IMG/VR virus record: IMGVR_UViG_3300025072_002801
DNA: 64,000 nt
Source of the DNA: a virus
Taxonomy: Duplodnaviria > Heunggongvirae > Uroviricota > Caudoviricetes
Direction: 5' to 3' (one strand)
The notes below the pieces were generated by a model, which ran no database searches, had not been told where the DNA came from, and saw only the letters and a program-made list of their open reading frames with translations. A program made the position numbers and the translations under genes. Of the stretch, positions 52,660 to 58,294 are shown in pieces. Every line of letters starts with the position of its first letter. Position 1 is the first letter of the stretch.

Positions 52660-53832
52660 ATGTCAACTGCAAAAAATAGAAGAAAAGTGGCGCATAAAAT
52701 TTCTAGGGGAGTTGAGAAATTCCTTGAGGAAAACAAGGATTCGACAGAGCCAGCCAAGGTAGCTGTCCACACTGCTGTGGAAGGAACTTTGAAAAGCTTG
52801 CAGGGCAATATCGGCGCTGATCTTGACGCAGTGGCAAGAGAGCAGAGTATTGCATTGGCGAAAACTTTGCAAAAATCACTTTTTCAATTGGCTAACGACA
52901 CTTGGTTCGACCATGACAAGGGAGATATGATGATAGTGCCAGAAGGCACTAGATTTGTACATCGTCAAGGAACAACTGTTTACATCGCAATTGAAGAAAA
53001 GCCTCAAGTTAGAAGTATTAGATACGAAAAAGGAAATAGAACCTATAATTACAGGGTTGCTTTGCCTTATTGTATCTTTATTTTCCCCGTTGGGACTTTT
53101 GTTGATGATAACGGAAATCCACGTTACAACCTGAATCAAGGAAAGTTGGCATTTTCGAAACAGCCACTTACATCTCTTGATCAGGAGGTGTATTGTCCGT
53201 GCCTTCCTAACATCAATACAGAAGATAGAGAATTGAAGATTTGCATGGGTGGAGCGTTTAACTTCAATGTAAATGAAACTCTGTGCGAACAAATAAGACT
53301 TTACATAACTCACTTCTGGGGCGCTCCATTCGGAACAGATTGGGCACATGAATTTGAAAGAATGGGCGGAAAAGACAGAAGGTTTGCAAATTTCAACAGA
53401 TGGCAAACTGCATCGGAAGAAAATCCGTTGTTTGTTTTGGAAGATGAAATCGAATATAGATCTGCCGGAACATTTGGAAAGTTGGTGCTGGAGAACATTA
53501 CTGACAGCAGCGATATTAACGTTCCGTTGCGTAAGATTGTAAAAACTGCTGTTGACAGTCTTGGTCAAGATGTGATCAGAACATTGAGACAGGCTGACTT
53601 GCTGAAAAACTTTGACGCCAAGACGGTTGACAAGTGTGTGTATGAGTTGATGTGTAAGTGTGTTCGTGATTGCGTTGATTCTGTTACAGATGATTTGGTT
53701 GTTGAAGACAGAGAAGAATTCAACAGTTCCAGAGATAGCCTTGAGGACGACTTGACCGACCTTCTTGTCACTCTTGAGAAAAGAGTAACCAAAGAAAAAG
53801 GTGAATCGTCTGGTTATTGGGGAAAAATTTAA
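52660..53832 (+). CDS. Hypothetical protein, paralog of 57326-58294, with a possible divergent UBC/E2-like core
   Basis: Shares P.GTRF...VY...E..P.VRSI.Y with the 57326 protein; LPNINTEDRELKICMGG resembles a degenerate E2 HPNI...G.ICL active-site stretch (H replaced by L). Confidence 0.5.
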   Translation: MSTAKNRRKVAHKISRGVEKFLEENKDSTEPAKVAVHTAVEGTLKSLQGNIGADLDAVAREQSIALAKTLQKSLFQLANDTWFDHDKGDMMIVPEGTRFVHRQGTTVYIAIEEKPQVRSIRYEKGNRTYNYRVALPYCIFIFPVGTFVDDNGNPRYNLNQGKLAFSKQPLTSLDQEVYCPCLPNINTEDRELKICMGGAFNFNVNETLCEQIRLYITHFWGAPFGTDWAHEFERMGGKDRRFANFNRWQTASEENPLFVLEDEIEYRSAGTFGKLVLENITDSSDINVPLRKIVKTAVDSLGQDVIRTLRQADLLKNFDAKTVDKCVYELMCKCVRDCVDSVTDDLVVEDREEFNSSRDSLEDDLTDLLVTLEKRVTKEKGESSGYWGKI

Positions 53833-53841
53833 TCATTTCAT

Positions 53842-53870
53842 TTGTCAATTGTACGATTCTTAAGTATAAT
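53842..53870 (+). promoter_or_regulatory. Sigma-70-like promoter TTGTCA-17-TATAAT
   Basis: Exact 17-nt spacer. Confidence 0.5.
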
Positions 53871-53927
53871 GGTTATAACGACGAACGAAAAGAAAAGTTG
53901 ATGACGGAAAAATTTGGTAATTTTTCA

Positions 53928-53956
53928 CTTACCAAATCAAAGTTTACGAAGTATAA
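53928..53956 (+). promoter_or_regulatory. Sigma-70-like promoter TTACCA-17-TATAAT
   Basis: Exact 17-nt spacer; 45 nt upstream of the JAB gene. Confidence 0.45.
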
Positions 53957-53999
53957 TCTCTAGTAGAAGTTAAAACATTTTCGAGTTTGGGAGAAAAAG

Positions 54000-56039: not shown

Positions 56040-56387
56040 ATGAGTGACCAAGAACAACGGCCACAAGACGACGCAAATGCTCAGCGTCCAGCAGATGAGC
56101 AAAATCAGAACCAAGCTGGTGACGCAGATGCAGCCGCAGATGCGGGCGATGCCGACAAAAGCAGCGATGCTGCTGGTTCTGTCACGGTTATTCATGGTGC
56201 GAATAACCAAAAGTTTGACAACCTTGCTGGCTCGACGGTCGGTGACGTTCGTGACACTTTGACTGACGTTTTCAACATTCCACAGGACGCACAAGCGTTG
56301 GTGAATGGCGAGAATGCTGGCGGAAACTATCGTCTCCGTCCAGAGGACACACTTGAGTTCATTCGCCAAGCAGGAGTCAAGGGTTAA
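56040..56387 (+). CDS. ThiS/MoaD-like beta-grasp (ubiquitin-like) protein with an acidic low-complexity N-terminal extension
   Basis: C-terminal 70 aa (VTVIHGANNQKFDNLAGSTVGDVRDTLTDVFNIPQDAQALVNGENAGGNYRLRPEDTLEFIRQAGVKG) follows the ThiS pattern beta1 / G.TV.DL helix / AVALN.E.V.R...L.DGD.I.I; ends in Gly. Confidence 0.5.
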   Translation: MSDQEQRPQDDANAQRPADEQNQNQAGDADAAADAGDADKSSDAAGSVTVIHGANNQKFDNLAGSTVGDVRDTLTDVFNIPQDAQALVNGENAGGNYRLRPEDTLEFIRQAGVKG

Positions 56388-56490
56388 ACCTTGACATCTT
56401 TGGCAGTGAAATCAGGGTGTAGCATCCCTTCCAAAATCGCCCCTGCCACATGGTGGGGGCGATTTTTTTTTATGTGTAAAGGAAATAATA

Positions 56491-56946
56491 ATGAATATGA
56501 AAAAGCCTAAGAAACCAAAGAGAGTGCATGGCAAGAACTATCTTGATCAAAAGGATCGTCATAAAGCGCAGAACTTGATGATGGAACCTTCCACGGCAAA
56601 GATAGAGCCTCATGTAAATAGATGGACTCCAAAGAACCCTGTCTGGGCAACTGTGTATGTTGGAAATGATTTTGTTCGTATTGAAGAACTGGAATCAATT
56701 GACAGTGTGGCAGGAAGAGTGTATGAAATTGTTGCAAAAAATGGAGTTGTTGGTGGAAAGTCGTGTTCATGGCATGACACATTTTTGCATTTGTATTTGG
56801 AAGATCCAAATGAATCGGCAAGTTTTTCAGACAAAAAATGCACTTTTTGTCTTGACCAATATGGACATGTTTGCATTCGAGGTATCGGCGGAATTTTAAC
56901 CCCATACTCAGAGTGGAGAGAGGCAAATGCATCACTCAATTCTTGA
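56491..56946 (+). CDS. Hypothetical basic protein
   Basis: 151-aa ORF; no domain. Confidence 0.45.
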   Translation: MNMKKPKKPKRVHGKNYLDQKDRHKAQNLMMEPSTAKIEPHVNRWTPKNPVWATVYVGNDFVRIEELESIDSVAGRVYEIVAKNGVVGGKSCSWHDTFLHLYLEDPNESASFSDKKCTFCLDQYGHVCIRGIGGILTPYSEWREANASLNS

Positions 56947-57316
56947 TGAATTATGCACAGATCATTATGAAGTGCGTTGGATGTGTGGTACGGACAATAC
57001 AAGTGCGTTTCATGACTCTCTAAAGAAAGATGGGCTTGTGCTTCTGTTGTCAGCCATGTATGATTGTGGAGAAGTTGAGGATGGAGAGATACAAGAGTTT
57101 GTTGACAGGCTTTTGTCTGCTCACTATGAAAAAGGCGTCTTCTTTCCATTTGATACAGCCCTCTCAGCAATATGTGTGGCGATGGAGGATAAGAGAACAC
57201 CATTCGCAAATCAGTTTCTAAAAAGTTTGTTGTCAGTTTTTGGAGGCACATGCGTAGAGTTTTTGAAGACAAGTAGAATGTCAAAAATGTGTTTTGAGAT
57301 AAACGAAAAAAGTTAG
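56927..57316 (+). CDS. Hypothetical protein
   Basis: 129-aa ORF overlapping the previous gene by 20 nt. Confidence 0.4.
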   Translation: MHHSILDELCTDHYEVRWMCGTDNTSAFHDSLKKDGLVLLLSAMYDCGEVEDGEIQEFVDRLLSAHYEKGVFFPFDTALSAICVAMEDKRTPFANQFLKSLLSVFGGTCVEFLKTSRMSKMCFEINEKS

Positions 57317-57325
57317 GAATAAAAA

Positions 57326-58294
57326 ATGTCTAAAGATTATTGGTCTGGCGAGTTTGTTGATCTGTTAAACGATGGAGTCGCTGAGGACAAAAAAGAACAG
57401 TCTTCTATTCCGCAAGTTGAAAACATAGATGAAATTGTGGAGAATGGAAAAGACAGTCTCATGCGAGAGTTTGAAAAGTTGGCTTTACTGACAGCTTCTA
57501 ATCTTCATAAGGGCGTTTTGTCAGATGCAGATGTTGATGTTGGAAAGTTAATGAGACAGTTTGAGAGCGACCTTGCAAACAGAATGTCAAGAACACTGTT
57601 AAGTGTGCAAGCAAGTCCCATGCCTCCTGGCACACGTTTCGCTTTGCCGTTTGGCAATTCCATTGTTTACGTAATTGAGCATGAGCCATGTGTTCGTTCC
57701 ATCTATCATAGCCAAGGAATAAACGGTAAAGCATCCTTAGCGTTTCCATATATGGTTTTTGGGACGTTGGTGGACAAAAATAGAATACCAGGGCATCTAC
57801 ACATTGGATGCTCTAACAAGTCTCTCTCAAGCCTTGATGATCGTCTTGAACGAATTCACCTTTCTAACATTTATCAGAGTTTTAACAAGATGGGGGTTTG
57901 CGATTCTTCCATTAGTGGTGGCTCGGCTGCAAAAAAGGGGTCAACGGTTGCAGAAAAGGTAGAGGCAGTGATAACACAGTTCTGGGCTTCTCAATGGAAC
58001 GGAGCAGGAATGACAAGTGAGTGCAAGGATTCGAAAGTTACCACTATTGCCAGTTGGGAGAAGAATACAAAAAAAGATCCAATGTTTTCATTGAAGGTAA
58101 AGTGGCAGTCCGCTGGCATTAATGTTCGTCAATTTGCTGAAGGTCTTGCTGGATCAAAGATAGATGAAGAAAAGAAAAGCCATGCTCGATTGGACACTGA
58201 TTTCAGAGGTCTTGGAAGAGAGTTGGTTGGCAATGTCACAAATGCTCTAAATTTGCGTTTGGAAGAACAGGGGATTACATTCCGTGATGAATAA
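57326..58294 (+). CDS. Hypothetical protein, paralog of 52660-53832, with a possible UBC/E2-like core
   Basis: RIHLSNIYQSFNKMGVCDSS resembles the E2 H(P)N...G.(I)C active-site stretch; beta-strand-rich region preceding it. Confidence 0.5.
   Translation: MSKDYWSGEFVDLLNDGVAEDKKEQSSIPQVENIDEIVENGKDSLMREFEKLALLTASNLHKGVLSDADVDVGKLMRQFESDLANRMSRTLLSVQASPMPPGTRFALPFGNSIVYVIEHEPCVRSIYHSQGINGKASLAFPYMVFGTLVDKNRIPGHLHIGCSNKSLSSLDDRLERIHLSNIYQSFNKMGVCDSSISGGSAAKKGSTVAEKVEAVITQFWASQWNGAGMTSECKDSKVTTIASWEKNTKKDPMFSLKVKWQSAGINVRQFAEGLAGSKIDEEKKSHARLDTDFRGLGRELVGNVTNALNLRLEEQGITFRDE

Follow-up and report, generated by a model that had tools for sequence, protein, structure and literature searches.

Experimental evidence for the conjugation of ubiquitin-like modifiers (Ubls) in prokaryotes comes, to date, from host antiphage systems, namely type II CBASS, Bil and Bub. 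Among the operon classes described by Iyer, Burroughs and Aravind in 2006, class 6d combines a Ubl, a JAB peptidase, an activating enzyme (E1) and a conjugating enzyme (E2) that lacks the classical His (PMC1779556). No experimental or functional study of the 6d/PRTRC/Prok-E2_D class was found in the literature searched, nor any functional study on ubiquitin in huge phages or on Ubl, JAB or ThiF genes of the candidate phyla radiation (CPR). We analysed a 64,000-nucleotide stretch of the virus record IMGVR_UViG_3300025072_002801 (hereafter, the window), which encodes a set of this kind: three E2-like paralogs, here called C0, A and B, together with a JAB/JAMM metallopeptidase, a small ThiF-type E1 and a candidate Ubl. 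In our reading, C0, A and B are probably diverged, Cys-dependent E2 paralogs with the ubiquitin-conjugating (UBC) fold, belonging to a phage-borne Ubl-conjugation cassette, and they represent most likely three specificities rather than an active and an inactive partner.

The cassette is a variant of the Iyer 6d/PRTRC-like conjugation operons that is carried by a phage and has an expanded E2 set. In common with 6d, Prok-E2_D and PRTRC loci it has the same four components, adjacent on one strand, and E2s that keep the Cys and have lost the His of the HPN motif, a loss already reported for class 6d (PMC1779556). Moreover, PRTRC_A and PRTRC_ThiF are the best specific models for the window JAB and E1. 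On the other hand, the Pfam model does not capture A and B, and the scores of JAB and E1 are well short of the NCBIfam PRTRC cut-offs (E = 2e-12, 47.1 bits vs. 101.8 for PRTRC_A; E = 2.6e-10, 40 bits vs. 144.75 for PRTRC_ThiF). The window E2s also differ in their long helical extensions and in being present in three copies, and a His in the helix that follows the catalytic Cys, described as "absolutely conserved" in class 6d and considered part of the active site (PMC1779556), is found in only 24 of 58 aligned members of the family. Finally, the carrier is a 389-kb phage-like contig (Patescibacteria chromosomes in the case of the relatives) and not integrative and conjugative elements or plasmids. 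The ten cassette proteins matched none of the other PRTRC models, and the neighbours that were scanned included no ParB-like partner, a search for ParB across the whole window not having been made.

Bil (BilABCD, an ISG15-like antiphage system) resembles the cassette in its E1-E2-Ubl cascade, its JAB-type deubiquitinase and its Cys thioester chemistry, and its E2 too has an insertion before the catalytic Cys (PMC10557695). However, the Bil E1, of about 450 aa, comprises an inactive and an active adenylation domain and a mobile Cys domain (PMC10557695), whereas the window E1 is a single ThiF domain of 250 aa; in addition, Bil is a host defence, while the window cassette is carried by a phage. 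Membership of Bil was rejected on E1 architecture. PADLOC returned a marginal BilD match (E = 0.0048), BilB was matched by none of the E2 copies, and neither the E2 copies nor the JAB and the Ubl were assigned a defence-system model. Bub (6E/DUF6527), likewise a prokaryotic operon of diverged E1, E2, Ubl and peptidase genes, was known at first from bioinformatic prediction alone; it uses Tyr and Ser oxyesters, its E1 and E2 being devoid of a catalytic Cys (PMC11601596), whereas the window E1 (Cys187) and E2s hold an invariant Cys. For this Cys chemistry, membership of Bub was rejected as well.

Three E2-like paralogs and their active-site motif

The first-pass annotation of this DNA had described A and B as two paralogs with a short similarity and had tied them to a JAB-E1-Ubl core. 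Both open reading frames (ORFs) and all the strings quoted for them were found as described, namely VPEGTRF...VYIAIEEKPQVRSIRY and LPNINTEDRELKICMGG in A, and MPPGTRF...VYVIEHEPCVRSIYH and IHLSNIYQSFNKMGVCDSS in B. By BLASTP the paralogy of A and B is real and well beyond chance (E = 1e-18), but the similarity is not short, since it covers about 258 residues at 25% identity, and the paralogs are not two: a third copy, C0, matches A with E = 7e-10 and B with E = 8e-7. A family-profile scan of the six frames of the 64-kb window gave C0, A and B and no other copy. The main difference among the three proteins lies in the helical extensions at their N and C termini.

C0 matches Pfam Prok-E2_D (PF14460) with E = 2.2e-6 and 27.9 bits, above the gathering threshold of 25 bits. 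The same model, and essentially no other, was matched (E < 0.01) by 23 of the 58 aligned members of the family. A word-index homolog search retrieved just a handful of relatives of the E2-like proteins; an exhaustive profile search gave 3214 cluster representatives at E <= 1e-3, of which 1674 also passed E <= 1e-10. Many members are 350-400 aa long, and others, of about 700 aa, carry the domain in their C-terminal half. As far as profile comparison can tell, the family is large, mostly unannotated and a distant branch of Prok-E2_D.

In the 58-sequence alignment six residues are invariant (E112, P136, N184, C195, W220 and W248, in A numbering). N184 and C195, whose aligned equivalents are N181 and C192 in B and N79 and C88 in C0, are thus Asn and Cys in 58/58 sequences, and the Cys lies where a catalytic Cys is expected, in the loop that joins the beta-meander to helix 2. 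Both residues are also kept in the orthologs of A (P0002-P0004), of B (P0009 and P0010) and of C0 (in locus L001, as LPN...C), so that conservation of the Cys, the lack of which in orthologs had been named as an outcome against the E2 reading, extends to all orthologs of A and B. Asn and Cys are separated by 11 residues in A and B; the most common spacing in the family is 8, as in human E2s. Together with the Prok-E2_D matches, this conservation supports the E2 (UBC-like) identity first put forward for A and B.

A canonical H-P-N motif is not present. The Asn is invariant, Pro is usual at position 183 (47/58, with Ser in six sequences including B), and the His is replaced by Leu at position 182 in 52/58 members, among which are A, B and C0. 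According to the alignment, this His has been lost throughout the family and not in one copy alone. The contrast drawn in the first-pass annotation, in which one paralog retains His and the other has Leu, was an artefact of reading the two sequences unaligned: Leu occupies the position in both (L182 in A, L179 in B), and His178 of B lies one residue upstream of the HPN-His column, where A has Cys and the family mostly Asn. A degenerate active-site motif is likewise not supported, as all three copies keep Asn and Cys and the His is missing family-wide.

Fold and register against known E2s

The AlphaFold models of A and B have a mean predicted local distance difference test (pLDDT) score of 76 and 72, with 80-97 and 82-95 in the core, respectively. 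In both, a long N-terminal helix is followed by a beta-meander, the LPN loop with the Cys after it, a long helix that bears an FW motif and, lastly, short helices. When compared with known structures, each of these two independent models retrieved several E2s as its only compact matches (listed in the table below), with Z staying below 6, and a fold unrelated to UBC, which had been named as the outcome that would speak against an E2, was not found. A Foldseek search of model A against PDB gave no significant match, Cdc34 and Ubc2 appearing at E 0.24-0.52. The modelled fold appears to be of the UBC alpha/beta type, within the bounds set by Z < 6, shallow alignments and a non-significant Foldseek result against PDB.

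Sequence comparisons with known E2s agreed on the register. Most PDB chains retrieved by the 58-sequence family profile were apolipoproteins and coiled coils, matched through the helical tails, and its only non-helical match was UBE2L3 (E about 0.8). The local alignment, 'PNinsnlsvClg...vI' against 'PNIDEKGQVCLPV...VI', brings the Asn and the Cys of the family into line with the HPN Asn and the catalytic Cys86, respectively. An hhalign comparison with four human E2s, whose sequences had been checked against PDB (E2 entries matched at about 1e-73), gave the same register with E = 0.001 and a probability of 21%, the Cys being aligned with Cys85 of UBE2D2. No PDB match was obtained with the 11-sequence profile or with a core-only profile.

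With respect to canonical eukaryotic E2s (UBE2D2, UBE2L3, UBE2N, UBE2I), the family has Leu for His, more strands in the beta-meander, a conserved FW-x-S-x-F in helix 2 and large helical extensions, and A and B further carry three extra residues ahead of the Cys. Neither by sequence nor by Foldseek was a significant match to canonical E2s obtained for the family. On the whole, the assignment of A and B as UBC-like E2s is well supported, short of proof.

Partner genes, related loci and genome setting

The tie to a JAB-E1-Ubl core was supported by conservation: the order E2-JAB-E1-Ubl is kept in nine related loci, that is L001, L002 and seven loci of Patescibacteria type. L001, a 21-kb locus on a 279-kb contig, contains two SPFH/Band_7 genes, a C0-type copy, other genes, and then the A-type copy, JAB, E1 and Ubl, with no B-type copy within 10 kb. 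L002, a contig of 9.5 kb, has the A-type copy, JAB, E1, Ubl, four ORFs and a B-type copy. A scan of reference genomes gave eight loci, mostly from Patescibacteria (Saccharibacteria, Buchananbacteria, Uhrbacteria), in which E2-like genes of 373-783 aa are followed by JAB, ThiF and Ubl. Identity to the window proteins in the Patescibacteria loci is 45-50% for JAB, 42-46% for E1 and 26-35% for E2; over the related loci, the window JAB is 45-58% identical to the product of the gene after E2. The place directly before JAB (A-type) is conserved in all related loci, and B- or C0-type copies occur in some relatives only. Duplication of the E2 recurs, with A- and B-type copies in L002, A- and C0-type copies in L001 and two adjoining copies in L012. 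A search for relatives of A in IMG/VR viral contigs found none, tblastn of A against isolated phage genomes gave zero matches, and tblastn of E1 against the same genomes gave a distant ThiF in a Bacillus phage as its sole find.

In the Patescibacteria the cassette stands among housekeeping genes. At L008 (3825-14727), MnmA and AlaRS lie upstream and the ribosomal proteins S13, S11 and S4, RpoA and L17 downstream; in Saccharibacteria, MetRS, TatD and UppS are found beside it. These chromosomal neighbours suggest a cellular role rather than that of a mobile element.

L012, from a Uhrbacteria genome, has two adjoining E2-like genes (7842-13316; 1041 aa and then 701 aa) after JAB-E1-Ubl. The first copy is intact, whereas in the second (11160-13313) the Asn is replaced by Lys and the Cys is missing; this second copy is, on its motif, a natural UEV-like (ubiquitin E2 variant) inactivated paralog of the family.

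The cassette is arranged in the order C0, a deoxyribosyltransferase-like gene, A, JAB, E1, Ubl, two small ORFs and B (Table 1). In the JAB, which matches Pfam Prok-JAB with E = 4e-5, the JAMM motif as read from the sequence is intact (Glu107 and H133-x-H135-x7-S143-x2-D146). The E1 matches Pfam ThiF with E = 1.4e-12 and, in a seven-sequence alignment, its GxGGIG nucleotide loop (G17-G22), Asp112 and loop Cys187 are invariant. The candidate Ubl has a low-complexity, acidic and Gln-rich N-terminus and about 70 conserved C-terminal residues, and it holds a conserved place after E1. The ending G-x-K-G is common to its orthologs in L001, L002, L006, L008, L009, L010 and L011, the L002 ortholog having one extra residue (Asn) after the terminal Gly; the match to Pfam TGS is weak (0.073). 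These features make the 115-aa protein a candidate for what is expected of a Ubl that is adenylated at its terminal Gly and trimmed by a peptidase. Beside the E2-like gene of L010 (934-1671), a Ubl-like ORF ending in ...DGKKG apparently contains three tandem Ubl-like repeats, an arrangement reminiscent, by analogy, of polyubiquitin-like precursors.

Table 1. Position of the E2-like paralogs, their motifs, the partner genes and other features of the window. In the rows of structural matches, the first bracketed value is Z.
Feature	Position (nt)	Strand	Description
C0, E2-like paralog	51448-52071	+	207 aa; minimal, lacking the long helices at either end
C0, LPN motif, N79	51682-51684	+	
C0, Cys88	51709-51711	+	
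A, E2-like paralog	52660-53832	+	390 aa; long N-terminal helix ~30-82, UBC-like core ~90-270, C-terminal helical region
A, L182-P183-N184	53209-53211 (N)		
A, Cys195	53242-53244		
A, helix His218			
A, structural matches of model			1yrv (5.9, 119); 1yf9 (5.8, 117); UbcH5c (5.8, 115); Ube2K (5.7, 118)
B, E2-like paralog	57326-58294	+	322 aa; N-terminal helix ~34-95, core ~100-270, C-terminal helix
B, H178-L179-S180-N181	57866-57868 (N)		
B, Cys192	57899-57901		
B, Gln218			at the place of the helix His of A
B, structural matches of model			E2S, 1zdn (5.6, 118); Mms2, 5ojw_B (5.6, 99)
JAB/JAMM metallopeptidase	54000-55163	+	387 aa; C-terminal half acidic, of low complexity
E1, single-domain, ThiF/MoeB-type	55164-55916	+	250 aa
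E1, Cys187	55722-55724		
Candidate Ubl	56040-56387	+	115 aa, ending ...LEFIRQAGVKG-stop
Two small overlapping ORFs	56491-57316	+	151 aa and 129 aa, between Ubl and B
151-aa ORF	56491-56946		Cys/His-rich C-terminus (C-x-W-H ... C-x2-C-x6-H-x-C), may bind metal
Two SPFH/Band_7 proteins	48119-51379		520 and 555 aa, just upstream of the cassette
Nucleoside 2-deoxyribosyltransferase-like gene	52072-52584		Pfam Nuc_deoxyri_tr2, 54.8 bits; between C0 and A
Tandem array	58284-60257		~6 small paralogous ORFs of 104-126 aa, directly downstream of B
MIB_HERC2 matches in the array	58623-58943; 59641-59955		34.5 bits and 42 bits, respectively (Pfam cut-off 33.5)
Cargo genes	46624-47590; 61446-63344		include a metallophosphatase and a bacterial-type IF-1 homolog (Pfam eIF-1a, 74.9 bits)
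DUF4379 protein, thiamine-pyrophosphate enzyme, aldehyde dehydrogenase	5-1519; 25445-27070; 31634-33103	one strand	DUF4379 protein with five DUF4379 treble-clef zinc-finger repeats and a DnaJ fragment

The large SPFH/Band_7 pair is the same that is found upstream of the cassette in L001 (1-2187). The two ORFs between Ubl and B gave no match in Pfam, NCBIfam, PHROG or PADLOC and no tblastn relatives in the related loci. In the array downstream of B, a third ORF scores just below the MIB_HERC2 cut-off; in eukaryotic E3 ligases MIB/HERC2 is a domain that binds substrates, and a functional link of the array to the cassette is for this reason conceivable. The array has no convincing relatives in the related loci, the one marginal tblastn match being that of 59272-59637 in L011 (E = 0.005), and therefore neither the array nor the two ORFs can be claimed as conserved parts of the system.

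The window is gene-dense, with a GC content of about 39%, and nearly all its genes are on the + strand; Shine-Dalgarno-like motifs lie 5-12 nt 5' of start codons. It carries five tRNA genes (two for Met, and one each for Pro, Trp and Asp), and also encodes a T4-type RNA ligase, a LAGLIDADG endonuclease and helicase domains. The IF-1 homolog and the tRNA genes are translation-related cargo typical of very large phages; the DUF4379 protein, the thiamine-pyrophosphate enzyme and the aldehyde dehydrogenase are metabolic cargo that is unusual for a phage. From the size of the contig, the Shine-Dalgarno-like motifs, the tRNA genes, the IF-1 homolog and the enzymes just named, the window is phage-like. 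Origin from a eukaryotic giant virus was rejected on the tight one-strand packing of the genes and the Shine-Dalgarno-like motifs.

Proposed mechanism and alternative explanations

If the cassette works as its components predict, the small E1 would adenylate the C-terminal Gly of the Ubl (...AGVKG) and take the Ubl onto its loop Cys187, from which transthioesterification would move it to the Cys of an E2 (C195 of A, C192 of B, C88 of C0), with the invariant Asn of the L-P/S-N motif acting as the HPN Asn. The E2s would then hand the Ubl to lysines of host or phage target proteins, probably without a dedicated E3, the helical appendage of each E2 setting its targets or partners; the JAB metallopeptidase would trim Ubl precursors and/or reverse the conjugation. 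Thioester formation by A, B and C0 is a prediction from the conserved active-site residues, and the genomic linkage to E1, a Gly-terminated Ubl and JAB is conserved. Since Asn and Cys are kept while the helical extensions differ, three specificities for targets or partners, served by one set of E1, Ubl and JAB, seem the likeliest arrangement, and the faster divergence of E2 with respect to E1 and JAB fits a role in determining specificity.

Several points weigh against this reading. A and B have no match in Pfam, NCBIfam, PHROG or PADLOC (Prok-E2_D is not reached even at E <= 1), and their link to E2s is transitive, through C0 by BLASTP and through the common family profile. The Prok-E2 label itself calls for caution as proof of an E2, because Pfam Prok-E2_C turned out to be the inactive adenylation domain of an E1 (PMC10557695). 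The models of A and B were built on shallow alignments of 11 sequences, and their beta-sheet has about seven strands, as compared to four in canonical E2s. Of the three copies only A has the helix His reported by Iyer et al. for class 6d (His218), B having Gln and C0 Val in its place. The Ubl thioester and the transfer to targets are at the level of prediction. As for the helix His, its presence in A alone among the three copies may mean that A, B and C0 are not equally active; as it occurs in fewer than half of the aligned members, it does not seem to be required in this branch.

A division of roles is also conceivable in which A is the cognate E2 and B and C0 are accessory regulators, decoys or hijackers that, for example, accept Ubl from, or titrate, the related E1/Ubl system of the host instead of steering conjugation to targets of their own. 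Such an arrangement, which we regard as unlikely, would agree with the fact that only the A-type place before JAB is conserved across all related loci; the related cellular cassette in Patescibacteria chromosomes makes a target system in the host plausible, and the identity of 26-35% for E2 vs. 42-50% for JAB and E1 fits adaptive as well as specificity-driven evolution. The conserved Asn and Cys of B and C0, however, are equally expected of ordinary active E2s.

The first-pass annotation had likened A and B to an active E2 with a UEV-like inactive partner, an arrangement known from the pair formed by Ubc13 and Mms2. UEVs are UBC-fold proteins defined by loss of the catalytic Cys, and Mms2 lacks it. 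This loss is absent from A, B and C0, and the UEV reading was rejected because Cys and Asn are kept, in B and its orthologs as in A; with the alignment the His/Leu contrast disappeared too. We are left with little reason to expect one dead copy here. The helix His of A, missing from B and C0, could be taken as a sign of it, but it is no family requirement; the long helices of A and B could mediate pairing; and the match of model B to Mms2 does not discriminate, because UEV and E2 share one fold. The L012 pair, in which an inactive copy stands beside an active one, shows that a UEV scenario is biologically possible in the family, though it is not what the window holds.

It is equally improbable that A, B and C0 are not E2s at all, with an Asn/Cys motif belonging to another thiol enzyme or to a structural or assembly protein and a superficial likeness to UBC, as might be argued from the non-significant Foldseek and profile searches of PDB, the low hhalign probability, the extra strands of the beta-sheet and the precedent of Prok-E2_C, given that in lineages far apart the gene keeps a strict linkage to E1, JAB and a small protein ending in Gly, that two independent models each retrieve several E2s as sole compact matches, and that in every sequence comparison with signal the Asn and the Cys of the family coincide with the Asn and the catalytic Cys of E2s.

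Returning to the reading of three active E2 specificities, one may speculate that a huge phage took up a Cys-based E2-JAB-E1-Ubl system of Patescibacteria (CPR), that its E2 is now present as three specificity variants, and that the MIB/HERC2 array provides E3-like substrate adaptors, so that the phage would have its own multi-branch "ubiquitylation" of host or virion proteins during infection. In this full form the scenario is rather doubtful.

What is new here is a phage-borne cassette with three E2 copies that bear helical extensions, and a sub-family mostly missed by domain libraries. The locus is a compact 6d/PRTRC-like set on a phage, in which three E2s go with a single E1, Ubl and JAB, and allows a direct test of whether duplication of the E2 alone diversifies targets without a recognisable E3. 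The E2-like family to which these proteins belong comprises thousands of clusters, is mostly invisible to Pfam and is found beside ribosomal-protein and aminoacyl-tRNA synthetase genes in Patescibacteria. This link to Patescibacteria chromosomes was unexpected, and the locus offers a good experimental entry point.

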